From Acaryochloris marina S15 (lineage in GTDB: Bacteria; Cyanobacteriota; Cyanobacteriia; Thermosynechococcales; Thermosynechococcaceae), in contig NZ_CP064923.1 of assembly GCF_018336915.1 (NCBI RefSeq), positions 4,620,001 through 4,652,000 on the forward strand: a stretch of DNA of 32,000 nucleotides, given 5' to 3'. This document shows, one piece after another, positions 1,612 through 18,810 of the stretch. Position 1 is the stretch's first letter. Each line of letters opens with the position of its first letter. The notes under the pieces are model-generated. The model searched no databases and was not told the DNA's origin. It worked only from the letters and a program-made list of their open reading frames with translations. The translations under genes and the position numbers were made by a program.

Positions 1612-1620
1612 TAAGATGTC

Positions 1621-2379: not shown

Positions 2380-2393
2380 TATCCCCCTCTCCA

Positions 2394-3902
2394 CTAAGCA
2401 GTTTTTAAATCAGACATTAATTGTTTGAGATCCCATAAGATGTTTCTGCCTTTTGGTAGAGCTACTAAGGCAGTAAAAAAACTCATGATAGTGACCACAA
2501 AGGCAAGACAGCATCCCCAGAAAGGCTGAGGCTGAATAAGATACCGTAGCGTCCCTAGTGCCAGGATAGTGCATAACGTTGAAAAGCCAAGCGGCGCCAT
2601 GGTTACATAGAAGTCTTTCGTTTTGACAGGGCCATGTCGCCCGACCACAAAGAATAATAAGGGCATCGTGATACATAGGGCGATGCTGGAATAAGAGATG
2701 GCCACACCCAGGGCCTGCCAGGGTAGACCAACCCCAAACGAGAAGATGGTAATGGTAGAACTCAAAAGTCCCCATCGGAATAAATCATCCGTTCGATCTT
2801 GAGTAATAAATAACCAGCCTACAGAATTGGCGATGGGCCGCATGAGTCCTGAAATGCCCAGCAATGCGAAGATAGCACTAGCACCGAGCCACTGTGAGCC
2901 TAACAAAATCTGGATCAGCCAATCCGATGCGGCGATCATAAATAAGATAATTGGCAAGGTCAATAACATCAGTTTTTCTAAGATGCGCAGATAGACTTGT
3001 CGATATCGACTAGGACTATCCACTAAGCGGCTGAGCACAGGGACGGCCACGTTGGTAATCGGGGCGTTAATTTGGCTAATTGGCAAGAGCAAGAGTTGAT
3101 AGGCTTTGGCATAGAGTCCTAATTGTTGCGAGCCCCAGAACTTACCAATTAATACGTTGTCCAAATTGAGAGACAAGTAGTTCACAATGCTGAAGCCGGT
3201 GATATTGCTACCGAAGACCATTAGCGATCGCATCTCGGTATTCCAGCGAGGTAAGCCCGGCACCCAGCGACAAGCAATCCAAATTCCCAGAGTATTCACG
3301 CTAATCGTGACTAGAGACAGGGCGATGAGTGACCAATAGCCCCACCCTAGCCACACACACAAGAAGGCCGCACTCACACCAGATAGCTGTGCAAAAACAT
3401 CATTGAAGGCTAGGGCGTTGTAAGACATCTGCCGCTGAAGTAGAGCAGTATGTTGCACCCCTAAGCCCCCCATGACAATGCCACCCGCTAAAGCAATGGT
3501 AATTAGGGTCAACCTCGGCTCATTATAAAATCCGGCAATCAAGGGCGAGAGGCAAGCGGCGAGAATAGCAACCCCTAAACTAAAACTCACATTAATCCAG
3601 AACAGCGTACTGACCTGCTCATGATTGATATCTTCTTTCTGGACCGTCGCCATAGATAGGCCTAGATCTTTGAAGATCGTCACAAACCCCATGACTGCGG
3701 TCACCATCCCCACCAAACCATAGTCATTCGGGGTTAAGAAACGCCCCAACACGACATTGGCCACAAGGGTCAACGTAAATTTCAACCCCTGAGCAGTGAT
3801 GGTGGTCGCACCACCTCGAACAGCTCGTTGCTTTAAATTTCCTTGCAAATGCTTCGTACTGAAAAAAGCATCTGCAGTATGATTAGACTTTCGAATACGC
3901 AA
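2394..3902 (-). CDS. Polysaccharide flippase, Wzx-like (MOP/PST family), polytopic membrane protein
   Basis: 502 aa and highly hydrophobic with many predicted TM segments. The N-terminal LKQRAVRGGATTITAQGLKF is typical of Wzx/PST exporters. The track start is a TTG, so the start is uncertain. Confidence 0.75.
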   Translation of the reverse strand: MRIRKSNHTADAFFSTKHLQGNLKQRAVRGGATTITAQGLKFTLTLVANVVLGRFLTPNDYGLVGMVTAVMGFVTIFKDLGLSMATVQKEDINHEQVSTLFWINVSFSLGVAILAACLSPLIAGFYNEPRLTLITIALAGGIVMGGLGVQHTALLQRQMSYNALAFNDVFAQLSGVSAAFLCVWLGWGYWSLIALSLVTISVNTLGIWIACRWVPGLPRWNTEMRSLMVFGSNITGFSIVNYLSLNLDNVLIGKFWGSQQLGLYAKAYQLLLLPISQINAPITNVAVPVLSRLVDSPSRYRQVYLRILEKLMLLTLPIILFMIAASDWLIQILLGSQWLGASAIFALLGISGLMRPIANSVGWLFITQDRTDDLFRWGLLSSTITIFSFGVGLPWQALGVAISYSSIALCITMPLLFFVVGRHGPVKTKDFYVTMAPLGFSTLCTILALGTLRYLIQPQPFWGCCLAFVVTIMSFFTALVALPKGRNILWDLKQLMSDLKTA

Positions 3903-3936
3903 GGGTTCGGCCTGATTGATCGGTCGACAAACTCAC

Positions 3937-6228
3937 TTAAGCTTTTAGGTAAGCATAGTTCTTATGGGTGGGACTCACGCCATTTGCCACTAGACCAATC
4001 ACATTCAATTTCTTATGAGCAGAAATTGCTTGTGATAACTCTAACCGGGTGACTTGTTTCATTCGACCCACCATCACAACACCATCGCATCCTAAGCCGA
4101 TAGGAATGGTATCTACGACGCCCAACACTGGAGGACTATCAATCAAAATCAAATCATAGTTATTTTCAAAGCCTTTGAGAACATTTTGCATCCGTTCTAA
4201 ACTCAATAGCTTTACTGGATCTGCCGATAGAGGTCCAGCGGTCAACACATCAATACTCAGATCAGACGGAGGCAGCGTTCCTGGATCTAGCTCAGACTCA
4301 TCCCAACGCATATAAACCCATTGTGGGGTAGTCTGTAGCTCCGCCAAGGTGACATCTCCATTGAGGAGAGTCGATAATCCTTGATGGTTATTCAGGTTAA
4401 ACATGTAGTGCAAGCTTGGATTTCGCAGATCTGCATCAATCACTAAGACACGTTGATCTAACCGAGCAGCACTAATTGCTAGGCCTAAGGCCAAGGTAGA
4501 TTTACCCTCTCCAGTCCCAGCTGAAGTAATCATCAAAGTTTTATAGGGGTTTTTGGTTTGTAGCAGCTGGATGTTGGTATAGATTAAGTCCAGGGATTCT
4601 CGCAGGGGTTGCCATTGAAATAGTTCTGGCGTAGTAAAGGTGGGGCTTTGGGTTTCTGTTAAGGGCAGAATGAGAGAGTCTCGCAAGTCAGAGGTAGAGA
4701 GTTCAGGGATAGCGCCCAGTAAAGGCAAGGGGAACTGATTACCTAAATCATCTGAGTTATGAAACTTATCGTCCATTGCTTCGCGCACAAAGGCTGCGAT
4801 GCCACCCAGAAATAACCCCACGACTGCTCCCAACATCAAATTGCGTCGGGCGTTGGGACTAATTTGAACCCCCTGCTGGGGCGCTTCTACCACTTGCCAA
4901 TCAAAGCCATCTCGGGCAATCTCTAATCCCAGCTCTTGGCGGGCTTCTAGAAGCTTCTGCAACGTCCCCCGTCGAGTAGAGACTTCTGGTTGTAGGCGGT
5001 TGAACTGGGCCAATAACTCAGGATATTGCTTGAGTTCAGTCGTTAACTTTGCTTCGGTTTGCGCTAAGCTGCGATCGCGTGCTTGCAAACTCTGCAAGCT
5101 TTTCTGAAGTTCACTCAACTGCCGAACCAGGGATAAGTCATTGTCCCCAAATTGGCCTGCATTGAGTTGGTTCTCACTGGTGGGCAACTGACCCGCATCA
5201 TTCCCCAATACCCGACCCACTTCCTGCTCTAATAGAGCCAATTGATCTCGGCGCTGATTGAGTAAATTGAAAATGATGGGATGATCTTCCGTCAAAGTTT
5301 GGCGTTTTTGCGCTAACTCTAATTCAGTTTGCTGAATTTGATTCAACAGAGACTGATACCGAGGCGATTCACTTAACCGAGCCGATGTTCGAGCTTGATC
5401 AGGGGCTAACTGAATCTGCCGCTGCACACTGGTAAAACTGGCATAGGTTTCTCGGTATTGAGCATCTAAAGCCTGTCGTTCAGTTTTGATCCGGTCTAAA
5501 GCAGCGGATGCGGTTTGGGCTTGTGTAGCAGGGTCAATCACATTGGTGCCACTGCGAAAAGTCTTCAGGGCAGCCTCTGCTTCCAAAACGCTGCGGCGAA
5601 CTTCTGGCAATTGCTTATCAATAAACGCCAAACCCTTGGAGAGACGGAGCTTCTGCTGTTCTAGGTTATAGAGTTGATAGACAGATAAGACTGTTTCTAA
5701 AATCTGTTGGGTTTTTTCAGGCTGAGTACTGATGTAACTGGCGGCCAAGACCTTTGTTGCGACCTTTCCTTTACCCGTTCGATCTGGACCATATACAGGA
5801 CTAAAAGACAAAGATGATCGTAGATCCTCAATGGTGATATTTGGATAGTCTGTTTGTAGCCGTTCAACAGCCCTAGACAGAACTTCAGCCCCCGTCAACA
5901 CTTGCAGTTGTGTCGTGAGATCCACTTGAACATTCGGATCAGCAAACCGATTCTCTGCGGTCTTCGGCCCTAAACCATTCGGTTTGGACTGATAGTTGGA
6001 CTCCACCAAAAGCTGCATCGTACTTTGATACAGGGGTTGAGTTTTTAAAGTCAGGAAAATAGAGCCTGCCAAAGCGCCCACAAAGGCACCTAGAAACCAA
6101 AATTTCCGCCGGATTAAGATCGAAAGCAGATGCCCATAGCCCCAGTCTTTGTCAATGGTTTGGGCAATCAAAGCATCTTGTTGATGCGCAAGCTTATTAG
6201 GGGGTTTGTATAAACTGCTTTCAGTCAC
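3937..6228 (-). CDS. Polysaccharide co-polymerase / BY-type tyrosine autokinase (Wzc/GumC-like)
   Basis: 763 aa with an N-terminal chain-length-determinant region, two TM segments and a long coiled coil. The C-terminal P-loop ATPase has Walker A SAGTGEGKST, Walker A' VLVIDADLRNPS and Walker B DLILIDSPP. GTG start. Confidence 0.85.
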   Translation of the reverse strand: MTESSLYKPPNKLAHQQDALIAQTIDKDWGYGHLLSILIRRKFWFLGAFVGALAGSIFLTLKTQPLYQSTMQLLVESNYQSKPNGLGPKTAENRFADPNVQVDLTTQLQVLTGAEVLSRAVERLQTDYPNITIEDLRSSLSFSPVYGPDRTGKGKVATKVLAASYISTQPEKTQQILETVLSVYQLYNLEQQKLRLSKGLAFIDKQLPEVRRSVLEAEAALKTFRSGTNVIDPATQAQTASAALDRIKTERQALDAQYRETYASFTSVQRQIQLAPDQARTSARLSESPRYQSLLNQIQQTELELAQKRQTLTEDHPIIFNLLNQRRDQLALLEQEVGRVLGNDAGQLPTSENQLNAGQFGDNDLSLVRQLSELQKSLQSLQARDRSLAQTEAKLTTELKQYPELLAQFNRLQPEVSTRRGTLQKLLEARQELGLEIARDGFDWQVVEAPQQGVQISPNARRNLMLGAVVGLFLGGIAAFVREAMDDKFHNSDDLGNQFPLPLLGAIPELSTSDLRDSLILPLTETQSPTFTTPELFQWQPLRESLDLIYTNIQLLQTKNPYKTLMITSAGTGEGKSTLALGLAISAARLDQRVLVIDADLRNPSLHYMFNLNNHQGLSTLLNGDVTLAELQTTPQWVYMRWDESELDPGTLPPSDLSIDVLTAGPLSADPVKLLSLERMQNVLKGFENNYDLILIDSPPVLGVVDTIPIGLGCDGVVMVGRMKQVTRLELSQAISAHKKLNVIGLVANGVSPTHKNYAYLKA

Positions 6229-6238
6229 AATCTGTATT

Positions 6239-7363
6239 TCAACTTATAGAAGGAACAAAAGAATTTTGATTAATCGTTTGAGCGGGATAAATTTGGTTAA
6301 TAACTTGATGGATTTTTTGAAAGAAGACGGGTTCGGAAAAGTGTGACAGGGCATGGTTTCGAATGTATTGATAGTCCCATTCGATCTGTTGCGATCGCAC
6401 GAGTGCTGCCTGCAGAGATGAGGCTGTTTGTTTATTGAAAAACACACCCGTCTGGCCTGGAACTTGGGTATCGAGTACACCACCCGCACCAAAAGAAACC
6501 ACTGGCGTTCCGCTGGCATTTGCTTCAACGGGAACCAAACCATAATCTTCTAGGGCTGCCACGACCACTGCTTTAGCTTTGGCCATCAGATGACAGCGCT
6601 CTGCATCAGAGATATATCCTAGAAATTCGACGTTTGATTTAGCTCGACGTTCTAAATGCTCCCGTTCCGGGCCATCTCCCATAATCTTCAAAGGCCAACC
6701 CAACTGATTAAACGCATCAATAATAACGTCAACACGCTTATAGCCCAACAATCGGGCAGATACTAAGAAAAAATCTTCTTTTTGGTCCGAAAAAGAAAAT
6801 TTAGAATTATCAATTGGATAGTTGACTACAATCGCTTGCTTACTATAAGTCGATTGGATACGGCCGGCGACTTCAGTCGAATTAGCAATATATAGATCGG
6901 GCTCTTGGGCATAGGCGAGATCAGCCTTCCTCATGACCCGAAACATTTTCTCGATAAAAGGGTAGAGATGCTGATAGTCTGCATACTCTCTCAAATAGGT
7001 TTGGGTGTCCCACAGAAAACGAGTGATGTTATGGCAAAAGCAGATATGTTTTGCATCCGATCGGGTTCGCACCGCTTTAGCAAAGCTGGTGCTACTGCTA
7101 ATAATTAGGTCATATTTCTGTAAATCCAACGCTCTAAAAGCTGGATAATAGAAAGGAGCCAACAGCCTAAAATACTTGGTTGCCCCTGGTAATTTCTGTA
7201 AAAGAGTTGTATGAACAAGTCGATCGCCCAACTCTATCGTTTGTTGTGGATCGTATAGAGAAGTGAATATATCTGCACTGGGGAAGTGACGACACAACAG
7301 CTCGAAAACCCTCTCAGCGCCTCCGCGTTGGGTTAGATAGTCATGAACTAGGGCAATCTTCAT
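6239..7363 (-). CDS. Glycosyltransferase family 4 (GT-B)
   Basis: 374 aa. The N-terminus MKIALVHDYLTQRGGAERV and the E-x7-E region EDYGLVPVEANASGTPVV are typical of GT4 retaining transferases. Confidence 0.85.
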   Translation of the reverse strand: MKIALVHDYLTQRGGAERVFELLCRHFPSADIFTSLYDPQQTIELGDRLVHTTLLQKLPGATKYFRLLAPFYYPAFRALDLQKYDLIISSSTSFAKAVRTRSDAKHICFCHNITRFLWDTQTYLREYADYQHLYPFIEKMFRVMRKADLAYAQEPDLYIANSTEVAGRIQSTYSKQAIVVNYPIDNSKFSFSDQKEDFFLVSARLLGYKRVDVIIDAFNQLGWPLKIMGDGPEREHLERRAKSNVEFLGYISDAERCHLMAKAKAVVVAALEDYGLVPVEANASGTPVVSFGAGGVLDTQVPGQTGVFFNKQTASSLQAALVRSQQIEWDYQYIRNHALSHFSEPVFFQKIHQVINQIYPAQTINQNSFVPSIS

Positions 7364-7821: not shown

Positions 7822-9636
7822 TTATCGATAGTTCTGAGCTTGGGTTTCAAACATCGATGCATAGACCCCATTCAGGTTCATCAGCGTATTATGATTACCT
7901 TCTTCAATCATGTGACCTTGTGACATCACATAAATATAGTCCGCCATCTTAACTGTCGACAATCGGTGACTAATCAAAATGGCGGACTGATCTTGTATGA
8001 GCTCCCGAAACTGTTGGAAAACCTCATACTCAGCTTTGGGGTCCATTGCACTGGTTGGCTCATCCAGAACAATCACTTGGGAATCTCGAAGAAAGGCACG
8101 AGCCAAAGCGATTTTCTGCCACTGCCCAATACTGAGTTCTTCTCCCTGATCAAACATCTTGCCTAAGACAGTATCGTACCCTTGAGGTAACGACTGGATC
8201 ACTCTATCGGCCCCGGATAGTTGAGCCGCCGATCGGATTCGATGCTCATCGGCAGGTCTCTCAATATTCCCTAACTGGATATTCTCTCGGGCAGTGAAAT
8301 GGTATTTAGCATAATCTTGAAAGATGACGCTGATATGGCTTTTCAGCTCAAGCTTGCTAAAGTTTTTGAGATCAATCCCATCAATTGTGATATTCCCTTC
8401 AGTAGGATCGTAAAGCCGACAAAGTAGCTTAATTAATGTCGTTTTGCCAGAACCATTTTCACCCACTAAAGCAATGACTTGTCCTGGCTGAAGCTTGAGA
8501 GAAACATTGTGAATAGCTTGACGCTGGGTCGTTACATATTGAAAGCTCACATTATTGAAGGCAACTCCAGTGGCTAAACTCCCTGGAAAAGGCTGCGGGC
8601 ATTCTGGCTCCAAAACTTTTGATTCTATATCTAAAAACTCGTATAGATTCGCAAGGAACAAATTATCCTCATAAAGTCCAGATAGACTCCGTAACAAACC
8701 CTTCAGACTATTTTGGCCTTTTTGCAGTGCCTGATAGTAGAGAACTAAATCCCCTAATTTGAGCACTCCCAACAAAGTTTGTTGGACCATATAGACAAAG
8801 ATGGCAAATACAAACAGTCCTGCAATTACCTGGGCTCCAAAAAAGGCAAAGGATCGTTTGGAAACTATGCCTACTTTTTCTTTATAGATTATTTCCCGTA
8901 ACTGGGAATATCTGTGTTTGAAATGTTCTCCTAAGTTAAATAGACGAATTTCCTTGGCAAACAAATCGCTGGTTTGTAACCACCCCAAATACATCGCCTG
9001 CCGTTCCAGCTGAGTACGACGACGCTTCCAGTGGTACATCACCCCTGCAAACTTCATCCGCACCAACACAGTCGGAATAGCAGCAACAAACAAAATCCCC
9101 ACAATGCTCCAATGCAAGGCTAATAACAATCCCAACATTGCGATCAGTGAAATTGAACTTTGCCCGGCCAAGGCTAACCGATCCAGGATACGGGGAGGGC
9201 GATAGGGAGCCTCTTGTTGTGCCCGCTGCAAGGCATCATAATACTGGGCATTTTCGTAATACTCTAAGTCGGCTGAAATAGATTTAGAGTGGATAATGCC
9301 CTGCATATAATCCGTGACCCGCTGAGCATGAGCAATGGTAACCAAGTCCGATAGCGAGGCAAAGAAGGTCGTACTAATCGTCAAGCAAGCGGCAACAACC
9401 AATAAAGGAACGATATCGTTGATCGCTGATGCCCGGTTAGAGAGTGCTAAGCTAATCGTCACTTGGTCGACAATCAGCTTAGTCATATAAATGGAAAATA
9501 AGGGTAGGATGCCCTGAATGATGACCAAGCCAATGCGCGCCAAAGTCCAGTTAGGACCGCTTTGCCAAACCAATTTCAAAGCTGGTATGAAGTGCAAGGG
9601 ACGTTTGAATCTTGCTTTGATAAATCCAGTCAGCAT
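7822..9636 (-). CDS. ABC transporter, fused permease and ATPase; candidate lasso-peptide exporter (D protein)
   Basis: 604 aa with an N-terminal 6-TM domain. Walker A is GENGSGKTT, the signature is LSIGQWQKIALARA and Walker B is VIVLDEPTSAMD. It is co-directional with the two precursor genes and lies immediately downstream of them. Confidence 0.85.
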   Translation of the reverse strand: MLTGFIKARFKRPLHFIPALKLVWQSGPNWTLARIGLVIIQGILPLFSIYMTKLIVDQVTISLALSNRASAINDIVPLLVVAACLTISTTFFASLSDLVTIAHAQRVTDYMQGIIHSKSISADLEYYENAQYYDALQRAQQEAPYRPPRILDRLALAGQSSISLIAMLGLLLALHWSIVGILFVAAIPTVLVRMKFAGVMYHWKRRRTQLERQAMYLGWLQTSDLFAKEIRLFNLGEHFKHRYSQLREIIYKEKVGIVSKRSFAFFGAQVIAGLFVFAIFVYMVQQTLLGVLKLGDLVLYYQALQKGQNSLKGLLRSLSGLYEDNLFLANLYEFLDIESKVLEPECPQPFPGSLATGVAFNNVSFQYVTTQRQAIHNVSLKLQPGQVIALVGENGSGKTTLIKLLCRLYDPTEGNITIDGIDLKNFSKLELKSHISVIFQDYAKYHFTARENIQLGNIERPADEHRIRSAAQLSGADRVIQSLPQGYDTVLGKMFDQGEELSIGQWQKIALARAFLRDSQVIVLDEPTSAMDPKAEYEVFQQFRELIQDQSAILISHRLSTVKMADYIYVMSQGHMIEEGNHNTLMNLNGVYASMFETQAQNYR

Positions 9637-9960
9637 AAACGGCCATTTGACAATGCATAGTGCAGAATTATCCTAACGCTGTACGAACACACTCAGCGAG
9701 AGAGGTGAAAAACATGGCCAGCCCTAGTCAAAATCCTGGGTCATAGGATGGAGCTGATCTGCCAGATCGTTCACATTTCAATAATGAGGTCGAAGTCTTA
9801 GGGAGACTGCCTTACACCCCAGAGAAGCAAAGTCGTCATCCATATGGCTAAGCTGAAAAAGCCTGCATCCGAACAGCAAGGACTCATTCAGCAACACTGA
9901 AACCGTTGATCTTAAACAGGCCGTTATCGAGGAGATGCAATGTTGTGATCTGTTTTAGCT

Positions 9961-9996
9961 CAAACAAATAGAGCCAGCATTTTGAAGGCTGACTCT
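9961..9996 (-). terminator. Candidate intrinsic terminator or attenuator after the precursor genes
   Basis: The minus-strand RNA reads AGAGUCAGC-(9 nt loop)-GCUGGCUCU, a 9-bp stem with one G.U pair, followed by AUUUGUUUG. It begins about 40 nt after the stop of precursor A2. Confidence 0.4.
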
Positions 9997-10038
9997 GTTT
10001 GTATCAATATTCAGTTTATAGATAACTGAAAAGGATGA

Positions 10039-10179
10039 CTATGACGTTACATCATCAATATCACCGGCAGGAATCGTCCCAAAAGGCACATCTGTCGCAT
10101 TAAATGACGGTGAATTCTTAGTCATATCTTCTACGCTGCCATACACCTTCAACTGAGGTGCACCATAGGATCTTTTCAT
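10039..10179 (-). CDS. Lasso peptide precursor A2 (46 aa)
   Basis: Hand translation gives MKRSYGAPQLKVYGSVEDMTKNSPSFNATDVPFGTIPAGDIDDVTS*. An AAGGAG Shine-Dalgarno lies 12 nt upstream of the ATG. The leader fits the lasso RRE-recognition pattern Y-x2-P-x-L-x3-G-x5-T-x. Too short for the ORF track. Confidence 0.85.
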   Translation of the reverse strand: MKRSYGAPQLKVYGSVEDMTKNSPSFNATDVPFGTIPAGDIDDVTS

Positions 10180-10259
10180 GGTCTTAGCTTACTCCTTACT
10201 TAATTTGTCTTTAGCTGTTCTGGCTTATGCATATGGAAGCATTTGCCAATTAACAGCGT

Positions 10260-10277
10260 CTAATTGTTGTCAATTAG
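10260..10277 (-). promoter_or_regulatory. Conserved palindrome or hairpin in the A2 5' region
   Basis: The plus strand reads CTAATTG-TTGT-CAATTAG, a 7-bp perfect stem. It lies about 85 nt upstream of the A2 ATG. Confidence 0.4.
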
Positions 10278-10372
10278 GTGTTTTACCCCCCAGGTCAGCT
10301 GTGAAACAATTCAAGCTGGACCACGACGCAAACATTCTAGCAACAATCAAAAAATCGTGGCTGGGTAATAAA

Positions 10373-10513
10373 CTATGACGTTATATCATCAATATCCCCA
10401 GCAGGAATGGTTCCAAATGGCACATCGATAGCATTCACCGATGGCGCATTCTTTGTCATATCTTCTACGCTTCCGTAAGCCCTCAATTGAGGTGCATCAT
10501 AAAATTTTTTCAT
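10373..10513 (-). CDS. Lasso peptide precursor A1 (46 aa)
   Basis: Hand translation gives MKKFYDAPQLRAYGSVEDMTKNAPSVNAIDVPFGTIPAGDIDDITS*. It has an AAGGAG Shine-Dalgarno upstream and the same Y-x2-P-x-L-x3-G-x5-T-x leader. Its stop directly abuts the duplicated upstream region of A2. Confidence 0.85.
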   Translation of the reverse strand: MKKFYDAPQLRAYGSVEDMTKNAPSVNAIDVPFGTIPAGDIDDITS

Positions 10514-10596
10514 GGCCTTAGCTTGCTCCTTAAGTCATCTGCTTTTAGCAGCTGTTCTGGTTTACTTATATGAGTTGCCATACAAGTTAACAGCGT

Positions 10597-10614
10597 CTAA
10601 TTAAAGTTAATTAG
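10597..10614 (-). promoter_or_regulatory. Conserved palindrome or hairpin in the A1 5' region
   Basis: The plus strand reads CTAATTA-AAGT-TAATTAG, a 7-bp perfect stem. The innermost pair is A:T here and G:C in the A2 copy, a compensatory double change. Confidence 0.4.
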
Positions 10615-10803
10615 GTGTTTACCCCCCAGGTCAGCTGTGAAACAAGTTTCTAGCCGGACCATGATGCCGCTATTTTAGGCAGTATCCAGTGGAAAATCTT
10701 GCCGAGTGGACATCAATTCAGCATACAAATCCAGTTTAGACATTATAGCTTTTAAAATATATGGGGAGAATCTCAATCCTTAAATATTCATAAGATTTGA
10801 TTA

Positions 10804-12777
10804 CTATTGCGTGGATTCTGCAAAATTGGAGCTTAGATTAGCTTGTTGTAGCCAAAGAATCAAGTTAACGGCAATCCAAATCAGTAAAGTGTCGTTAGCT
10901 TCAGCATGTCCTGTGTGCCATCGATTGACTAGGTTAGTCAGCTCTTGCATATCAATAAAGTCTGCAATGGCATCAGGAGGATGACTGAGGACCTGGTGGA
11001 TCAAGTCCGTACCGTATTTCTCTAGGGTATGGTCAAACGCTGTGCCCAAATTTCCTTTCCCTGCGCGCCACTGAATTTGGGGAGGAAGAATACCTTCGAG
11101 TCCACGTCTGATAATCAACCGAGTCCAACCATTTTGCATCTTCTGCTCCTCTGGTAGAGAGACACAAAATTCTACTAACCGCTTATCCCAAAAGGGAAAT
11201 CGCAATTCAATTTGGGATGCGGCGGCTGTTCGATCCATCACTTCTAGGGTCGAAGAGACTAAGCCAGACGTAACATCAACGATATGTTCATGACGTTGAG
11301 ATGGTTGTGCGCCAAAGCGCTGACGACGCAACTGTTTATAGCGCTGTAGCACTGATGCCCGATCGATAAAGTCTGGGCTAAGGGGAATGGCCCAAGGCAT
11401 TGCTGGAGCTGCCTGTGATGCACTAGGGTCTTGCTGTCCACGAGATTGCCAAGTGTTGACTTTACGAATAATTTTGGTGATCTTTGTCTTCTTGAGGAGG
11501 GGGTTGATGCCAAATTTACGGACATAGGACCGATACAGTGGCCATAAGTCGTAACCGAAGCTTTGACAAAACCCGCTCATCTCGCGCCATAACTTGAGCC
11601 AATGTCCCGCTTTGGCAAGGGTGCGCAAATACCCTACTCCATGGGATACCGCCTGATCACCATCAAAGCCATCCAATAACACCCGGACGGATTGGCCCTG
11701 AGCGATTTGATATAAGGCATGGGTTAAGTGGGAGTTACAGGCAAATAAGGGTTCGTCTTGAAGGGCCAACATCTGCTGATAATCTGTCCAGGGTCCGAGT
11801 TGATCTCCCTGTACATACTGAGGCTCGATAGGCCGCTGATGAACCACTGCATTAATGAATTCCTGTTCATCAGATGCCGTTATTTCATTAAACACGGCAG
11901 AGAAGGTGGGGAATTTAGCGGTCTCTTGTGCCTCCTGTCTCAACTGGGCAGTCATACAGGTGATGGAGGAGGAGTCAATGCCACCACTTAACATCGTGCC
12001 CACGGGAAATGCACTTCTGAGGCGACAGCGCACTGCTTCGGTAAAAATAGCTTGAAACTGTTCAGCATAGGCTTGATCGGACTCAAGCTGTAGTTCAACG
12101 TCAGGATCGAGAGACCAGTAGGATGAGATGTCCAGATTGTTTTTGCTCACCGTCATCCGGTGAGCAGGAGGAAGTCGCAGGATCTGCTCATAGAAGGTCA
12201 TTTCTGAATCAAACAACATGAGGGTCAGATAGTCGGCGACTCTGGTTTCATTTAAGGCTTTAGGCACTTCTGGCAGGTGAAACAGCGCTTTCATTTCGCT
12301 TGCAAAGGCAAACACCTGTTCAGAGGCATAGTAAAAGAAAGGCTTGACCCCAAAATGATCGCGGGCACAAAACAAATGCTGTTGAGTGGCATCCCAGAGG
12401 GCAAAGGCAAAGTCACCCAGGAGAAATTCAGGACATTGTTCACCCCATTTTTCGTAGGCAGCAAGAATGAGAGCGCTATCGGTAATAACTTCGGATGTAG
12501 GCTGTTCCAGGCCCAACTGGGTCATCAGATCAGCACGATTATCAATCCGCGCGTCGGCAGTGAGGACTAAGGTTTGGGAGGCATTGCTGAGAGGAGGCGT
12601 TTCAAACCGGGATTCTGGGGTTGTCTGTAATAAACAATGGCCGAGGCCAACCTGATCTTGACTCCATATATTTGTCCCATCCGGTCCCCGATGGGACAGA
12701 GATTGGACCATTTGATGCAGATGATCAATCCCCCCAGGATGAGGGTGAGGATAAACAAAGCCAGTAATTGCGCTCAT
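10804..12777 (-). CDS. Lasso peptide cyclase (C protein), asparagine synthetase B-like
   Basis: 657 aa. The N-terminal Ntn-like domain starts MSAITGF, so it lacks the Cys2 glutaminase nucleophile, as is usual for lasso cyclases. The PP-loop ATP pyrophosphatase motif is MLSGGIDSSSIT. Confidence 0.9.
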   Translation of the reverse strand: MSAITGFVYPHPHPGGIDHLHQMVQSLSHRGPDGTNIWSQDQVGLGHCLLQTTPESRFETPPLSNASQTLVLTADARIDNRADLMTQLGLEQPTSEVITDSALILAAYEKWGEQCPEFLLGDFAFALWDATQQHLFCARDHFGVKPFFYYASEQVFAFASEMKALFHLPEVPKALNETRVADYLTLMLFDSEMTFYEQILRLPPAHRMTVSKNNLDISSYWSLDPDVELQLESDQAYAEQFQAIFTEAVRCRLRSAFPVGTMLSGGIDSSSITCMTAQLRQEAQETAKFPTFSAVFNEITASDEQEFINAVVHQRPIEPQYVQGDQLGPWTDYQQMLALQDEPLFACNSHLTHALYQIAQGQSVRVLLDGFDGDQAVSHGVGYLRTLAKAGHWLKLWREMSGFCQSFGYDLWPLYRSYVRKFGINPLLKKTKITKIIRKVNTWQSRGQQDPSASQAAPAMPWAIPLSPDFIDRASVLQRYKQLRRQRFGAQPSQRHEHIVDVTSGLVSSTLEVMDRTAAASQIELRFPFWDKRLVEFCVSLPEEQKMQNGWTRLIIRRGLEGILPPQIQWRAGKGNLGTAFDHTLEKYGTDLIHQVLSHPPDAIADFIDMQELTNLVNRWHTGHAEANDTLLIWIAVNLILWLQQANLSSNFAESTQ

Positions 12778-12797: not shown

Positions 12798-14015
12798 TTA
12801 GGAATGAGAAGTGGGTTCAATCTCTTTAATCATGAGAAATCCCTCTTGAATCAAGTTCTGAGTTAAGGACAATCTGCCAGCATCATTAATCAAACCACCA
12901 ATATCTTTTATGGCCAGACAGGAATGGTCGATCAGATCGGTCAGGGAAGCCGCTAGAAAGATAGGAAAGGTTAGGCTTTTTTGATAGAAGTTCAAAATAA
13001 TTTGGGTTGAACTTCTATCAACTGAAAATAGGATATTGGGCCTACGGGCAACGACAGAATCGAGATTGAGCTGTGGCAGATGGATCAGGTCTTGGAAGCG
13101 GCCTTGGTCTTCTGATTTGCGATCGCACAAAAATACCCCATTCTTCCGCTCCACCAATTCTTTGGTCTTCACCCTATTCATTAAGGACTGGCTCAGGGTT
13201 TGAAACGATTCATCAAAAGCCTGCTGTTGCTCAGAACTGGAAAAACCGTGGGGAATCGCTTTCCGAAAGGCCGGGTCAGCCTGGGCAATGGTGACCAACT
13301 CCTCCAAGAGTTCGTAAGCAAAGGTGGGATATAACCCTAGGGATGCGTGGACTGAAGTGGTTTCTTGACTGGCCGCTTGATGGACCACACCCCGAGGAAT
13401 ATAGAGCAAATCACCAGGCTGGAGCATTACCGTTAACTCTGGCTCAGCCAGTTCATGGCGGCCAATACTTTGATCTCTGATGTGAGAGGGTAGCTCAACG
13501 GGGGAATGGTAGAGTTTCCATTCTTTCTCCCCGGTGATTTGGAGAATAAACACATCATGTTCGTCGTAATGAGGTGCTAAACCCTGGGCTTGGGGGGGCG
13601 TGATGTAGATATTGGTTCGGAGCTTAAACTTCAGCTCGCATTCTAGGGCACTACAAAAGTGTCGCAGCTTGGGAATTTTCTTGTGGGCCCCGTTGATGGT
13701 CAAGGTTAAGCCCTGGTGCAACAAGCTATACAGCTTGTCATTGTCAATAAAATATTGTTGGGATTTAGAGTGGCGTTCGCACCAGTCTTCCAGACTTAGC
13801 TTATTGCCCTGATCCACTAGGCGGAAGTTATTGTAATCCGCCAACAAAGCTTTGTTTTGCAGCAGTAGATCGATGTCGCCTGGATCTAGGACCGACCCAT
13901 AAAAAAAGGCATCATTCCTGGGCAAATGAAGCGTTTTTGCTTCCCAATAGGTCTGGAAAAAATCTTCAATCGTGCAGGGAGCGATTAAACGGGCAAACTG
14001 AGACTCAACCTTCAT
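12798..14015 (-). CDS. JmjC/cupin-4 Fe(II)/2OG oxygenase, ribosomal-oxygenase (YcfD/RoxA, COG2850)-like
   Basis: The N-terminus FFQTYWEAKTLHLPRND resembles the YcfD start. The facial triad is H-Y-D in GLAPHYDEHDVFILQ plus the distal His in LLYIPRGVVHQ. The ATG at 14015 overlaps the kinase stop by 11 nt (ATGAAGGTTGA). The track start at 14036 is a TTG. Confidence 0.75.
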   Translation of the reverse strand: MKVESQFARLIAPCTIEDFFQTYWEAKTLHLPRNDAFFYGSVLDPGDIDLLLQNKALLADYNNFRLVDQGNKLSLEDWCERHSKSQQYFIDNDKLYSLLHQGLTLTINGAHKKIPKLRHFCSALECELKFKLRTNIYITPPQAQGLAPHYDEHDVFILQITGEKEWKLYHSPVELPSHIRDQSIGRHELAEPELTVMLQPGDLLYIPRGVVHQAASQETTSVHASLGLYPTFAYELLEELVTIAQADPAFRKAIPHGFSSSEQQQAFDESFQTLSQSLMNRVKTKELVERKNGVFLCDRKSEDQGRFQDLIHLPQLNLDSVVARRPNILFSVDRSSTQIILNFYQKSLTFPIFLAASLTDLIDHSCLAIKDIGGLINDAGRLSLTQNLIQEGFLMIKEIEPTSHS

Positions 14016-14910
14016 GGGCCAGGATGTGATTTTCAACTAGGGTAGCAATGTCCGGCAGTAAATCTAAGGAAGCTGGTCGTAGAAGACGCAAGAGAGGCAC
14101 CTGTTGAGCCAGTATCATCAGTTGCTTAAAATGGCTGGCCCCTCGCTCCTGCAATAAAGTTTGCTCAAAGCGGGTGACATAGGAGTTTTGCATCAAATGT
14201 TGAATAATCTCCTGGGGCGGCAACGGCTTAATGGCGACTTCGTCTCCTTGCCCCAGCACAAAAATATATCTAAGAGGCAGAATGTCAGCCATAAAGCCCG
14301 AAGAGAGCTGATGATTCCGTTTTTCTAAGCGGGCACCTAATCGCGGCAAATCTTCGGGTTGCTTGCCAATGCAAGCGACGGCATCTGGCCACAGCTTAAT
14401 TTGAGGAAAGGCAGGTTGCACCTGAATTTGATGACGTTGGATTTCCAGGGCCACCACATCATCCGCAATTAAGCTATGGCCTCGATCATGCAAGGTAGCT
14501 GCCATCGTGGATTTGCCCCACCGTTTTTGACCGATAAAGGCCACGGCTTCGCCTTCTAAGGCCACAGCGCTGGCATGGAGGACCAAAAATCCTCGTTGGT
14601 GCAATACGACCCCCATCACCGCGCCTAGAATAAACAGGCGAAGGCGATCCTCATCCAGATCGATCTCTAAATCAATCAGGACATCTTGCCCTTCCTGAAT
14701 CAAAAACGTCCCCACTCCCTGCCAATATAAATACATCCCCGCATCTGTATTTTGATAGCAATGCAGGGTGTTTTCGGTTTGCAAAGGACTATCGGTAATG
14801 GCACCAAAATGAATCCAAACATCCGCATCAGTTGCCAGGGTAGAGATCAGTTCTGGCAGTTGAATTTCAGACTGTAGGGTCAAGCCATAGGCTGAGTAAA
14901 AGTGGGACAT
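14005..14910 (-). CDS. HPr kinase-like (HprK-related) kinase; candidate lasso precursor Ser kinase
   Basis: 301 aa with P-loop GQKRWGKSTMAA followed by LIADDVV, as in the HprK C-terminal domain. It sits inside the lasso operon, and both precursors end in Ser. Confidence 0.75.
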   Translation of the reverse strand: MSHFYSAYGLTLQSEIQLPELISTLATDADVWIHFGAITDSPLQTENTLHCYQNTDAGMYLYWQGVGTFLIQEGQDVLIDLEIDLDEDRLRLFILGAVMGVVLHQRGFLVLHASAVALEGEAVAFIGQKRWGKSTMAATLHDRGHSLIADDVVALEIQRHQIQVQPAFPQIKLWPDAVACIGKQPEDLPRLGARLEKRNHQLSSGFMADILPLRYIFVLGQGDEVAIKPLPPQEIIQHLMQNSYVTRFEQTLLQERGASHFKQLMILAQQVPLLRLLRPASLDLLPDIATLVENHILAHEG

Positions 14911-15043: not shown

Positions 15044-15973
15044 CTACCGTGGGTCCATAGGCAGGATTTTCTTGAGGTTGGACTTGAGTTTTTTCAGGAA
15101 CGGTTGAGCGGATTTAGGGGAGTTGGCAGTAAACAGCTCATAGATTAACTGTTCGAATAGCGGATTGGGCACCATGGGGTCTGGGTGAATCATGGCATCT
15201 AGGTCCAAATTAAAGGTCGGCAACTCATTCAGACCTTGGTTTCCTTGGGTATGACTGCCTTGAGTACCAATATTAGAAACCAGATTGACCTTGGGCACCA
15301 CGGTAAGACCATTCTGGGCAAGACAAGAATAAAACCACGGAATATCCCAAACTTGTTGGTTTTGATAAGCCCAGTCAAATAATTGGGTAACCCAATCTGC
15401 TAGGGCTGGCTGCGGAAAAAATTGGGCCTGTCGATACTGAGGCCAGCCCGTCATTTTGAGGTCGTAGCATTGCCAAGCCCTGCGCCAAGAGGCCCATCCC
15501 CAAGACACAAAAAATTTAGAAAACACATAGGTCTGGGGAATCGGTAAGGTATCTCCCAGAAAATTACTGCCGGAGATAGTCATCACTTGAGATAGATGAC
15601 GGTACTGGGCCAACATGGCTTGGCAAAAAGGGAAAAAACTGGGATGGGGAAGACAATCATCTTCTAAAATGATCGCTTCTTCCACCTGAGAGAACACCCA
15701 ATCCAACCCCTGGGCATTGCAACACCGCCCCCCAAGATTCGAGTCTGAAAAATGGGTGAGCACCTCGCACTCCCAATCCACTTGATCGACAATGGCTCTA
15801 GCTTGCTGGCATAATTTTTGGTCCTCTGGAACATCAGCTCTCGGGCCATCTGCAACGATTAACAAAGCTTGTGGTTTGGCCTGGGCAATCGCGGCAAACA
15901 CCTGACTGGAATATTGAGGGCGATTGAAAATATGAAACGCAACGGGAGTGGAAAGGGGCATCAGGAGTGCCAT
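15044..15973 (-). CDS. GT-A fold glycosyltransferase, GnT-I (GT13)-like
   Basis: 309 aa. It has an N-terminal Rossmann-like strand PVAFHIFNRP. The motif IILEDDCLPHPSFF closely resembles the GnT-I EDD motif (EDD-x4-P-x-FF). Confidence 0.6.
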   Translation of the reverse strand: MALLMPLSTPVAFHIFNRPQYSSQVFAAIAQAKPQALLIVADGPRADVPEDQKLCQQARAIVDQVDWECEVLTHFSDSNLGGRCCNAQGLDWVFSQVEEAIILEDDCLPHPSFFPFCQAMLAQYRHLSQVMTISGSNFLGDTLPIPQTYVFSKFFVSWGWASWRRAWQCYDLKMTGWPQYRQAQFFPQPALADWVTQLFDWAYQNQQVWDIPWFYSCLAQNGLTVVPKVNLVSNIGTQGSHTQGNQGLNELPTFNLDLDAMIHPDPMVPNPLFEQLIYELFTANSPKSAQPFLKKLKSNLKKILPMDPR

Positions 15974-15991: not shown

Positions 15992-16600
15992 TCAGACAAA
16001 CCAGCTGACAATCGAGAAGCGCTCACCATAGGTGACCGGTTTAACTTCATGCCAGAGATCGGATCGAAACGCAATCAGTTGACCTTGTTCAGGCTCCAGA
16101 GGGAAGCCATAGTTTTGACCGCGAGCATCATCAAGTAATCCATAGAGGGCTAAGGCTCCGCCCCCAAAGGTCTGAGGACTAGGCTCAGCGGACATACTGT
16201 TGAGGAAAATAATTAAAGACACCAGTCGATTTTTTTCAAACTTAGAGCCCGGTAGGCTCGGATCGATGACATCTCGATGAAGGCCAAAAAAGTCGCCCAC
16301 TTGATAGCGATAGCAGGAGGGGGGTTCTAAGTCCTGGAGTTGGACCTGGAAATGGGTTTCTAATCGCGGCTTAATAGCAATTAAGCGCTCACGAATGCTC
16401 TGGGCCGTGGTTTGACTTATTTGCAACTGGCCCGTTTTTCGTCGACTATTGTCGGTCACAGCCTCACCATATCTTGTGAGGCGAGCGGGCTCACAGGGGC
16501 AGGTCTGTGCTTCCGTGAGGTAGGACTCACAAAATTGTGGATCTAAAAAGCCGGGGTCAACAAATACCCCCAAGCGTTCAAAAAAAGCAGCGCTAGGCAT
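15992..16600 (-). CDS. 2OG-Fe(II) oxygenase, prolyl-4-hydroxylase-like
   Basis: 202 aa. The HxD is in FGLHRDV, the distal His is in DLWHEVKPV, and the 2OG-binding Arg is in ERFSIVSW. Confidence 0.75.
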   Translation of the reverse strand: MPSAAFFERLGVFVDPGFLDPQFCESYLTEAQTCPCEPARLTRYGEAVTDNSRRKTGQLQISQTTAQSIRERLIAIKPRLETHFQVQLQDLEPPSCYRYQVGDFFGLHRDVIDPSLPGSKFEKNRLVSLIIFLNSMSAEPSPQTFGGGALALYGLLDDARGQNYGFPLEPEQGQLIAFRSDLWHEVKPVTYGERFSIVSWFV

Positions 16601-16670: not shown

Positions 16671-17129
16671 TTAGATCTTGGAATCAAATGATGGCATTGG
16701 TGTAAAGCGGGATAAGTCATTCACAAAGCCCATGATCACTTGCCCTTGCAACTCAACCCAGGCATGGGCTTCTAGAGAATGGTCTTCTGCTTTAGCAACC
16801 CCAATTTTTAGCTCGGGTTCATAGCCTCGCCGACAAATTAACACTTGAGTGACGAGGGCTCGAGCTAAACATTTCACCTTTCCTGGCATAAAGCGGCTGC
16901 TGGTGTTCACTGCCCAGACCACTTTACCTACGGTCCTACGACTAATCTTAGTCAGGGTAGGCGATTGATAGTAAGCAGACGTTTGGTGAAAGTTGACCAG
17001 CCATTTTTGCAGGATTTTGAAGGGTAGCAACCACAACCCCAATCGAACCAAGCCCAAGAGAACGTAGGTTTTGATCAGGAGGGTGCGATCGCAACTTCGC
17101 AACCGCAAAAATTTAAGCACTGGCGACAT
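16671..17129 (-). CDS. Lasso peptide leader peptidase B2 (transglutaminase-like Cys protease)
   Basis: The catalytic Cys context is KCLARALVTQVL and the His context is LEAHAWVEL. The ATG at 17129 overlaps the end of B1 by 17 nt. The track start at 17141 is a TTG. Confidence 0.85.
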   Translation of the reverse strand: MSPVLKFLRLRSCDRTLLIKTYVLLGLVRLGLWLLPFKILQKWLVNFHQTSAYYQSPTLTKISRRTVGKVVWAVNTSSRFMPGKVKCLARALVTQVLICRRGYEPELKIGVAKAEDHSLEAHAWVELQGQVIMGFVNDLSRFTPMPSFDSKI

Positions 17130-17418
17130 CTTTGATCTCAATCAATTCCGATTCAGCCATCTCATTTAGCAACCTCATGACATCTTGTTCACACTGGTCC
17201 GACCCAACTTCGTATTGATCTAAAATTTGGTCGCAGATATCTTTAACCGATCGAGGTTGCTGAAGTAAATTCCAAACACTTGCACCCACTTCATTCAAAC
17301 CGAAGTACATTCCTGTCTTCAGGTTGAGGATAACTGATTCCCCGGCTAAGTCAGATGAGACTTGCTCTGGGGTCGCAACAACCGTTGTATTCGTTGAAAT
17401 AGTGGTAGTCAAACTCAT
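17113..17418 (-). CDS. Lasso peptide B1 protein (PqqD-like RiPP recognition element)
   Basis: 101 aa. The PqqD/RRE pattern is ESVILNLKTGMYFGLNEVGASVWNLL. It lies directly upstream of B2 and is translationally coupled to it. Confidence 0.85.
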   Translation of the reverse strand: MSLTTTISTNTTVVATPEQVSSDLAGESVILNLKTGMYFGLNEVGASVWNLLQQPRSVKDICDQILDQYEVGSDQCEQDVMRLLNEMAESELIEIKDVASA

Positions 17419-17607: not shown

Positions 17608-18810
17608 TTACCTTTTTGAATTGCAGAATTTTTCAACGCAACGCACAAAGATTTCCACTCCCATGGCTAAAGCAGTCTCATCAAAATCGAATTGGGGATG
17701 GTGGTGGGGATAGGCTAATCCTCGCTCGTCATTGGCTGAACCCAAAAAGAAGTAGCAACCTGGAACTTCTTGCAAAAAGAAGGACATGTCTTCCCCTCCC
17801 ATGGTTTGACAGTTGGGAACCACACCTGTTGGTGTTTCAATCACTTCAGTACTGATGGAGCGTACTAAATCTGCGATCGCAGCATCATTTATCACAGGTG
17901 GATACAGTCGCCAATACTTTAAGTCGTAGGTGGCTCCCCAACTTTGACAAATCCCCGTCAGGATATCCTGCATACGCGGCTCAATCAGATGGGCCAATTC
18001 TGGGTCAAAGTAGCGAACCGTGCCGCTCATAAAGCTGGAGTCGGCAATCACATTAGAAGCTGTGCCCGCATGGAGTTGTCCGATGGTCACCACAGCTGAA
18101 TCGAGGGGATTGACATGGCGAGCCACAATGGCTTGGAGGGCGTTGACGATTTGAGCGCTGATCACCACTGCATCCGTGGTTTGGTGAGGCATGGCGCCAT
18201 GTCCCCCCTTGCCCTGAATCTTGCATTCAAATAGATCCACGGCAGCCATCAGCGGCCCTGATTTGACGCCAACGGTGCCGAGGGGGAGATTGTTCCATAA
18301 GTGCAGGCCAATAATGGCATCAACTTGCGGGTTTTGCAGAACACCCGCCTCAATCATGGGCTTGGCCCCACCCGGAGATTCTTCAGCAGGCTGGAAAATG
18401 ATCTTGACCGTACCGGCAAAGTCTTGGCGATGTTGAGATAAATAGCGGGCTGTTCCCAGAGCAATGGCCGTATGTCCATCATGGCCGCAGGCATGCATGA
18501 CCCCATCGTGGCGTGACCGATAGGAAACCGTATTCTCTTCCTGAATGGGCAAGGCATCTATGTCTGCCCGAATCGCTAACACTGGCCCCGGTTGTGCCCC
18601 AGAGATCGTGGCCATGATACCCGTTTCAGCAATGCCTGTTTGATGGTCAATGCCCCATTCTGTTAAGCGCTGAGCTACAAATTCAGCAGTGAGATGCTCT
18701 TTGAATCCAAGTTCTGGATATTGATGCAGATGCCGTCGCCAAGAGACTAAATCCAGTTGTTGGATATCTGAGCGAATGGAGGTATCAGAATGAGGAGGAG
18801 AAGAAACCAT
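17608..18810 (-). CDS. M20D-family amidohydrolase (N-acyl-L-amino acid amidohydrolase / hippurate hydrolase-like)
   Basis: 400 aa with motifs LHQYPELGFKE, MHACGHDGH, FQPAEE and GGEDMSFF, characteristic of M20 peptidases. Confidence 0.85.
   Translation of the reverse strand: MVSSPPHSDTSIRSDIQQLDLVSWRRHLHQYPELGFKEHLTAEFVAQRLTEWGIDHQTGIAETGIMATISGAQPGPVLAIRADIDALPIQEENTVSYRSRHDGVMHACGHDGHTAIALGTARYLSQHRQDFAGTVKIIFQPAEESPGGAKPMIEAGVLQNPQVDAIIGLHLWNNLPLGTVGVKSGPLMAAVDLFECKIQGKGGHGAMPHQTTDAVVISAQIVNALQAIVARHVNPLDSAVVTIGQLHAGTASNVIADSSFMSGTVRYFDPELAHLIEPRMQDILTGICQSWGATYDLKYWRLYPPVINDAAIADLVRSISTEVIETPTGVVPNCQTMGGEDMSFFLQEVPGCYFFLGSANDERGLAYPHHHPQFDFDETALAMGVEIFVRCVEKFCNSKR

Follow-up and report, generated by a model that had tools for sequence, protein, structure and literature searches.

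Which peptide, if any, is made from two short open reading frames (ORFs) that lie between a lasso cyclase gene and an exporter gene in the cyanobacterium Acaryochloris marina S15? The ORFs, here called A1 and A2, are on the minus strand of a 32,000-nucleotide (nt) stretch of contig NZ_CP064923.1 (positions 4,620,001 to 4,652,000), which we refer to as the window, and an earlier sequence-only reading of the window had taken them for lasso peptide precursors. We consider it very likely that A1 and A2 are functional, anciently duplicated precursors of a paeninodin-like (kinase-tailored) class II lasso pathway. The argument draws on the genes themselves, on the selection acting on them, on their operon and on a comparison with kinase-type lasso loci in other bacteria.

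Two short genes with lasso leaders

We re-read the minus strand of 9900-10700 for ORFs of at least 20 amino acids and recovered two ATG-initiated ORFs of 46 amino acids, with coordinates and translations identical to those proposed earlier: A1 at 10373..10513 (MKKFYDAPQLRAYGSVEDMTKNAPSVNAIDVPFGTIPAGDIDDITS) and A2 at 10039..10179 (MKRSYGAPQLKVYGSVEDMTKNSPSFNATDVPFGTIPAGDIDDVTS). A1 divides into the leader MKKFYDAPQLRAYGSVEDMTK and the predicted core NAPSVNAIDVPFGTIPAGDIDDITS, and A2 into the leader MKRSYGAPQLKVYGSVEDMTK and the predicted core NSPSFNATDVPFGTIPAGDIDDVTS. The AAGGAG reported upstream of each gene was also present, as a Shine-Dalgarno-like hexamer on the minus strand at 10526..10531 for A1 and 10192..10197 for A2, and it was invariant in 10 of the 10 related loci aligned. 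An in-frame TGA lies 24 nt upstream of the A1 ATG; therefore, the ATG at the 10513 end is the sole possible start.

The sequence-only reading had called both genes unannotated, which is true of the ORF track it worked from and not of the public records. GenBank and RefSeq call both genes under the name "hypothetical protein", with exact matches to A1 (WP_212662896.1/QUY41699.1) and A2 (WP_212662895.1/QUY41698.1); the cyclase of the operon is QUY41700.1, and the A2 ortholog of A. marina MBIC 11017 is UniProt B0CEG5, named "Lasso peptide". The same reading had described a plus-strand ORF at 10178-10378 as antisense to A1 and A2. In fact this 66-amino-acid ORF is antisense to the spacer between them and overlaps the genes by just 2 and 6 nt, and we rejected it as spurious because stops occur in all frames in MBIC 11017.

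The leader pattern Y-x2-P-x-L-x3-G-x5-T-x, on which the lasso assignment had leaned, matched twice in a six-frame translation of the window, against a chance expectation of 0.017 per window and a maximum of 1 in 300 dinucleotide-preserving shuffles. When the window and 11 related loci were scanned, the motif was restricted to these ORFs. A penultimate leader Thr marks the cleavage site of lasso precursors, and the Thr assigned to position -2 is indeed Thr20 in both peptides. The leaders also contain the motif [Y/W]xxPx[L/V/I/F/A] that lasso RREs (the recognition elements of RiPPs, peptides that are made on the ribosome and modified after translation) recognise (PMC13381572), as Y5-D-A-P8-Q-L10 in A1 and Y5-G-A-P8-Q-L10 in A2. 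The ring acceptor of a lasso peptide is an acidic residue, Asp or Glu, in one of core positions 7 to 9 (PMC6993621). Asp9 is the sole acidic residue at core positions 7-9 of both A1 and A2, and the remainder after it consists of 16 residues with three Asp, in agreement with the acidic loop and tail described earlier.

A search of 5.8 billion proteins retrieved close relatives only; the source-named matches were all from Acaryochloris and the remainder were metagenome sequences. Invariant in the 18 homologs retrieved were the leader motif, Thr at -2, Asn1, Asp9, Val10-Pro11, Gly13 and a C-terminal D-D-x-T-S, with variation at ring positions 2-8 and in the mid-tail. Ser46 is terminal in A1, in A2 and in all homologs of 46-48 amino acids. 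One A1 ortholog (P0006, from Logan contigs of 1.1-1.6 kb) is a 55-amino-acid stop read-through variant, …DDITSQSFYPVTNF, that would bury the C-terminal Ser; either natural loss of the stop in this allele or faulty assembly may account for it. A 711-amino-acid protein, P0012, was grouped with A2 in a 90% cluster table; this long ABC-transporter-like protein has no visible similarity to A2, and its grouping looks like a clustering artefact.

A1 and A2 are part of a minus-strand operon with the transcription order B1, B2, a prolyl 4-hydroxylase (P4H)-like 2-oxoglutarate (2OG) oxygenase, a glycosyltransferase (GT, 309 amino acids), a kinase, a JmjC gene, C, A1, A2 and D. B1 (17113..17418) encodes a PqqD-like RRE (PF05402, 3e-21; NF033536, 83.9 bits vs a cutoff of 80), and B2 (16671..17141) a transglutaminase-like leader peptidase (PF13471, 1e-30; NF033537, 119.7 bits vs a cutoff of 33). 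C (10804..12777) encodes a lasso cyclase of 657 amino acids with Asn_synthase and GATase domains (NF033535, 892 bits vs a cutoff of 525). All three are above curated NCBIfam cutoffs and on the same strand as A1 and A2. The last gene, D (7822..9636), encodes an ABC exporter of 604 amino acids with an ABC_tran domain. Orthologs of the precursors were found in every Acaryochloris-clade locus, always between C and D, and D followed the precursor gene or genes in every related locus extending that far.

Kinase family, processing and alternative readings

In the kinase-type lasso family, the leader-bearing precursor is phosphorylated on its C-terminal Ser by a kinase (PMC9266682, PMC5067487). In its solved members, paeninodin and pseudomycoidin, that Ser carries a phosphate and the ring is closed between Ala1 and Asp9 (PMC6993621). 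The kinase of the operon (14005..14910, minus strand, 301 amino acids) is an HprK-like lasso-tailoring kinase by a weak Hpr_kinase_C match. We aligned it with 17 cyclase-adjacent homologs and found H112 and G132-K133-S134 to be invariant and D150-D151 to be present in at least 17 of the 18, so that the catalytic His-Lys-Asp-Asp motif (H112, K133, D150, D151) is intact. These four residues are essential by mutagenesis in the lasso kinases PadeK and ThcoK (PMC9266682), and the Asp pair has been mutated in PsmK, as D158/D159 (PMC9266682, PMC6993621). A C-terminal Ser together with an HprK-like kinase gene predicts phosphorylation, a step that the sequence-only reading had missed, as it had the further tailoring genes.

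To place the operon we used the cyclase alignment as query in a family scan of one genome per species, which returned 80 loci. Homologs of the kinase neighboured the nearest relatives of the cyclase in Cyanobacteria, Rubrobacter, Rokubacteria, Acidobacteria, Mesorhizobium, Sphingobium, Sphingopyxis and others. Among the small ORFs with lasso leaders in these kinase loci, most of the clear examples ended in Ser and had Thr at -2 and Asp at core position 8 or 9, co-linear with A1 and A2. The leader ended in ...LTQ and was followed by the core NNGTSFVDVPQGTPVGDGNVAS in Pleurocapsa and GGSASGLLDAAYPIGTPSGSLLFS in Sphingobium; it ended in ...ITQ before the core QGGPAFRVDVPFGTPLGPNGITDITS in Scytonematopsis, where there are two tandem copies, AGGGSRTDVPRGTTVTNINDITS in an Oculatellaceae genome and GGGGSTALDASFPAHTPIGELTFS in Mesorhizobium. 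The two Scytonematopsis contorta precursors (L013:12106-12587) have identical cores that start from Gln, with a predicted nine-membered ring followed by D-V-P-F-G-T. By these comparisons we place A1 and A2, as predicted precursors, in the paeninodin-like family of phosphorylated lasso peptides, every sequence-level feature of which they share.

Cleavage after Lys21 and a ring closed on Asp9, as proposed earlier, are co-linear with the kinase-type precursors and agree with the rings of paeninodin and pseudomycoidin (PMC6993621); this part of the proposal stays a prediction, and we take cleavage after Lys21 with an Asn1-Asp9 ring as the best one. For the exact cleavage site, ring, threading and tailoring we infer the following scheme. 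B1 would bind the leader through its Y-x-x-P-x-L motif, and the HprK-like kinase would phosphorylate Ser46, the C-terminal residue, on its side chain before the leader is removed. One or both of the Fe/2OG oxygenases would probably act on the full-length precursor, and the glycosyltransferase possibly also. B2 would then cut after Lys21, with Thr at -2, and the cyclase would join Asn1, through its alpha-amine, to the Asp9 side chain, giving a 9-residue macrolactam through which the 16-residue acidic tail is threaded. The ABC transporter would export the product. The predicted monoisotopic masses of the bare lassos are 2480.2070 Da for A1 and 2518.1499 Da for A2, to which each phosphate would add 79.966 Da, each hydroxyl 15.995 Da, each hexose 162.053 Da and each HexNAc 203.079 Da; with a cut after Asn22 the masses would instead be 2366.164 and 2404.107 Da.

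Several points weigh against this reading. The NCBIfam model NF033528 ("lasso_cyano") gave 32.0 bits for A1 and 31.3 bits for A2, below its cutoff of 33, and the alignment covered the leader only (model positions 1-21 of 35, E about 1e-7). The four Acaryochloris-clade peptides tested scored 27.7-32.1 bits and an IP29b-type peptide 23.2 bits, and the RefSeq name "hypothetical protein" follows from the tested precursors of the clade scoring just under the cutoff, which relatives from Pleurocapsa (44.1 bits), Scytonematopsis (38.5), an Oculatellaceae genome (35.9) and Mesorhizobium (38.2), several of them co-linear, did pass. The AAGGAG of both A1 and A2 is 12 nt from the ATG, which is longer than the usual spacing of a ribosome-binding site. 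The action of the glycosyltransferase on the peptide is doubtful, because its homologs elsewhere lie in polysaccharide loci. The products of A1 and A2 are predictions from gene sequence. To our knowledge, Asn at core position 1 is undocumented in characterised lasso peptides. Cleavage shifted one residue towards the C-terminus (Ala/Ser1-Asp8) would likewise yield a ring of permitted size. Finally, the tails of A1 and A2 have few bulky residues to plug a nine-membered ring and unmodified pseudomycoidin was isolated unthreaded (PMC6993621), which leaves the lasso topology uncertain. For pseudomycoidin it was proposed that the phosphate and sugar at the C-terminus assist in keeping the thread in place (PMC6993621), and by analogy C-terminal modifications may do so in the A1 and A2 products too.

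The last of these points lend themselves to a different account, in which A1 and A2 are lasso precursors that are processed in another way, for example by a cut after Asn22 to form an eight-membered Ala1/Ser1-Asp8 ring, or into a branched-cyclic, unthreaded product. Besides the lack of a known precedent for Asn1 among characterised lasso peptides, all family members keep a permissible ring size when the cut is shifted by one residue, Phe12 and the Ile residues are the only possible tail plugs, and it was the wild-type pseudomycoidin lacking its C-terminal modifications that was unthreaded (PMC6993621). However, Thr at -2 is fixed in 18 of 18 homologs and in the related kinase-type precursors, and in the relatives that have been solved by experiment the ring is nine-membered, from residue 1 to residue 9 (PMC6993621). 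Asn at +1 is invariant in the clade, and Asn or Gln occurs at this position in the Pleurocapsa, Scytonematopsis and Rhodothermales precursors as well. The recurrence of Asn or Gln at predicted position 1 in several loci argues for a genuine core residue, and it fits a selected ring-forming residue over a leader residue. We therefore regard other processing as unlikely and keep to cleavage after Lys21 with an Asn1-Asp9 ring.

The history of the two genes bears on whether both are in use. A1 and A2 are part of a tandem duplication of ~335 bp that includes ~190 nt of upstream DNA, and the two units are 87% identical. Between the genes, 43, 40 and 29 of the 46 codons are identical at codon positions 1, 2 and 3, respectively, and the Nei-Gojobori method gave a dS of 0.95, a dN of 0.094 and a dN/dS of 0.099 (leader, 0.12; core, 0.085). 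With a dS of 0.95 and a dN/dS of ~0.10, the duplication is old and both copies have been constrained over their whole length. One could suppose that just one of them is functional and the other a decaying duplicate, since one precursor gene suffices in the divergent clade members L001, L003, L005, L009, L011 and L094, where it occupies the same slot. Against this stand the low dN relative to dS and the integrity of the start, AAGGAG, leader motif, Asp9, C-terminal Ser and upstream block in both copies. Both copies are also retained in the A. marina strains sampled, MBIC 11017 having the two-precursor arrangement, with dN/dS values between the window and MBIC 11017 of 0.09 for A2 and 0.04 for A1, and Scytonematopsis likewise has two tandem copies. 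A decaying copy is thus quite improbable. That A1 and A2 are untranslated chance frames in a duplicated intergenic repeat is barely credible: the ORFs are short and the ~335 bp duplication does include non-coding sequence, but their divergence is biased to third positions with a dN/dS of ~0.1, the leader motif is ~100-fold rarer by chance, the reading frame is kept across loci with unalignable flanking DNA, the competing ORF on the plus strand is interrupted in the ortholog, and the biosynthetic context is complete.

Taken together, the leader model match, the B1/B2/C context, purifying selection and the invariant core residues bear out the earlier proposal, and the identity of A1 and A2 as predicted lasso precursors is strongly supported. 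A bolder version, in which the products are heavily tailored and would be the first characterised cyanobacterial lasso peptides, carries an Asn1-Asp9 ring, Ser phosphorylation, hydroxylation by the JmjC and/or P4H-like enzyme and GnT-I-like O-glycosylation, with bulky C-terminal modifications rather than side chains holding the tail; as a whole we find it doubtful.

Putative tailoring genes and surroundings

Kinase-like and JmjC genes were found in every Acaryochloris-clade locus whose contig reaches that far. The JmjC gene (12798..14036, minus strand) encodes a putative ribosomal-oxygenase-like Fe/2OG protein hydroxylase of 412 amino acids (PF08007, 3e-31). Its best matches in the Protein Data Bank (PDB) were two ribosomal oxygenases, MINA53 and NO66 (E about 5e-30), it is also near YxbC and YcfD, and its H156/D158/H219 triad is intact and aligned with the MINA53 metal site. 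Outside the Acaryochloris clade, the gene was found only in the S. contorta locus (E = 1e-126). As listed, the ORF starts at TTG and has a 32-nt overlap with the kinase gene; ortholog calls are 405-416 amino acids long and the true start is uncertain. A similar ambiguity concerns B2, whose listed ORF with a TTG start gives 156 amino acids, with other gene calls at 151-152.

The second oxygenase (15992..16600, minus strand, 202 amino acids) is of the P4H/PKHD type (PF13640, 2e-15; PDB 3dkq) and keeps H108/D110/H184. The 309-amino-acid protein beside it (15044..15973, minus strand) had no Pfam match at E <= 0.01 and no PDB sequence match. An AlphaFold2 (AF2) model with a predicted local distance difference test score (pLDDT) of 89.3 was matched by Foldseek to 5ggi and 1foa at E about 1e-10; the protein has an invariant E104-D105-D106, weak GNT-I matches were found in 21 of 36 homologs, and the family has >7,900 proteins. 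The confident model is that of a GT-A glycosyltransferase, with POMGnT1 and GnT-I as the nearest counterparts. Deltaproteobacterial homologs of ~50% identity are in polysaccharide loci, by flippase, methyltransferase and GT4 genes, like the window's own downstream locus, and we found no support for a role dedicated to glycosylating the peptide. This gene and the 2OG oxygenase gene occur as a pair in some related loci and are missing from L001. A domain search found no PsmN-type nucleotidyltransferase in the operon, such a gene being frequent but not obligatory in paeninodin-like clusters; the one protein left without an assignment by domain was the GT-A glycosyltransferase.

In the literature searched we found no description of JmjC, P4H-like oxygenase or GT-A glycosyltransferase proteins as lasso tailoring enzymes. 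Searches for JmjC in lasso clusters and for Asn1 or Gln1 lasso precedents returned only irrelevant papers, which is absence of evidence and not proof of novelty. No paper on this cluster was found under the locus tags AM1_1913 to AM1_1916 or under Acaryochloris and lasso peptide.

In two independent contigs of a sister lineage (L005:3860-12150 and L094:9364-17645), the 2OG, GT, kinase, JmjC and C genes are followed by a 48-amino-acid precursor and D. Upstream, unrelated opposite-strand genes take the place of B1 and B2, with a PmbA/TldD protease pair no more than a few kb away; in these loci, RRE and leader peptidase must be encoded elsewhere or replaced. An M20 peptidase gene next to the operon (17608-18810) is probably not a cluster member, because it is absent upstream of B1 in L001. 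Right after the exporter gene there is an exopolysaccharide-type locus (838-7363, minus strand), to all appearances unrelated to the operon, with genes for a GT4, a Wzz/BY-kinase-like ATPase, a Polysacc_synt_3 flippase and two methyltransferases, and this juxtaposition is kept in the Acaryochloris-clade loci long enough to show it. About 5 kb past the other end of the cluster lies a TnpB/IS605 OrfB-type gene (23460-24689, plus strand) with HTH_OrfB_IS605, OrfB_IS605 and Cas12f1-like TNB domains.

Each precursor gene is preceded by a conserved block on the minus strand, at 10586..10661 for A1 and, as a second copy, at 10250..10323 for A2. The two ~75-nt blocks are ~90% identical; the third codon positions of the genes are identical at 29 of 46 and their synonymous sites are near saturation. 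The A1 block holds an inverted repeat, GGTCCGGCT (10652-10660) and AGCTGACC (10629-10636), and CTAATT-N6-AATTAG. Across ten upstream regions, including those of divergent loci, the most conserved feature was the imperfect inverted repeat GGTC(C)RGCT-N14-16-AGCTGACC. A structured or riboswitch-like RNA was weakly rejected (RNAalifold covariation term of -1.75 kcal/mol, 3 of 20 pairs compensatory, single-sequence z of -0.6 and -2.0), an Rfam search of 9600-10850 at E <= 1 gave just two spurious eukaryotic matches, and a scan for consensus sigma-70 promoters and terminators gave nothing relevant and no more than in shuffles. With low confidence, we take the block to be a DNA operator or promoter region and not an RNA element. 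No regulator gene is evident in the operon.

A hairpin followed by a U-rich run lies 3' of A2 (9964..10002, minus strand). The 91-nt stretch that contains it has a minimum free energy of -24.6 kcal/mol (z = -4.27), and 0 of 200 shuffles were as stable. In L009 (z = -10) and L001 (z = -4), the lone precursor gene is likewise followed by a structurally analogous hairpin with a U-run; the strict consensus terminator scan did not call the hairpin at 9964-10002. The presence of this hairpin after A2, with no comparable hairpin after A1, suggests a terminator or attenuator that is common to A1 and A2 and precedes the exporter gene. In such a scheme each precursor gene would have its own conserved upstream control block, and the hairpin would probably limit read-through into the exporter gene.

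Relation to known lasso systems

Genome mining has already revealed lasso clusters in cyanobacteria (PMC8600333, PMC9332814), curated NCBI models exist for the lineage, and the kinase-type family has been characterised biochemically; we found no isolated cyanobacterial lasso peptide in the literature searched. The predicted system is less ordinary in two respects: its Asn at position 1, and a kinase gene accompanied by JmjC, P4H-like and GT-A genes. Acaryochloris is a chlorophyll-d organism, and the product, if confirmed, would extend the phosphorylated lasso family to this ecologically notable host. Because these three enzyme types were not found described in lasso tailoring, the operon is a reasonable place to seek new peptide-modifying chemistry, and it offers a test of Asn as a ring-forming N-terminus. 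For annotation, it matters that the tested precursors of the clade just miss the NF033528 cutoff.

Like paeninodin of Paenibacillus dendritiformis and pseudomycoidin of Bacillus pseudomycoides, the A1 and A2 products are predicted to have a nine-membered ring on Asp9 and an acidic tail (PMC9266682, PMC6993621). Unlike those peptides, they have a cyanobacterial host, are predicted from genes, and come from a cluster with the order B1-B2-(2OG-GT)-K-JmjC-C-A1-A2-D. Their predicted position 1 is Asn and not Ala, their leaders have YxxP where those of Bacillota typically have WxxP (PMC13381572), and instead of a PsmN-type nucleotidyltransferase their operon has two Fe/2OG oxygenases and a GT-A glycosyltransferase. 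With the proteobacterial kinase-type clusters (A-B1-B2-C-K-D; for example SyanA/SyanK of Sphingobium yanoikuyae) the operon shares a kinase gene that adjoins the cyclase gene (PMC5067487, PMC9266682), and their precursors in Sphingobium (L028) and Mesorhizobium (L022-L025) likewise carry Asp9, end in Ser and have a leader that closes with T-x. The proteobacterial clusters differ in that their cores start with Gly and end in L-x-F-S, their precursor gene is upstream of B1, and they are without JmjC, 2OG and GT genes. The operon also resembles the cyanobacterial systems described by NF033528 and NF033535, its cyclase being a clear member of the latter and its leaders aligning to positions 1-21 of the former, and related cyanobacterial cores share D-V-P-x-G-T after the ring and a D-I-T-S end with A1 and A2. 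A drop in identity from at least 66% to ~50% sets the Acaryochloris cyclase clade apart from other cyanobacterial cyclases. Finally, as in the canucin A cluster of Streptomyces canus, Fe/2OG oxygenases are encoded in the lasso cluster. The canucin enzyme hydroxylates the leader-bearing precursor with the help of B1 (PMC9266682), whereas the two oxygenases here are of other families, JmjC/ribosomal-oxygenase-like and P4H-like, and hydroxylation by them is presumed.

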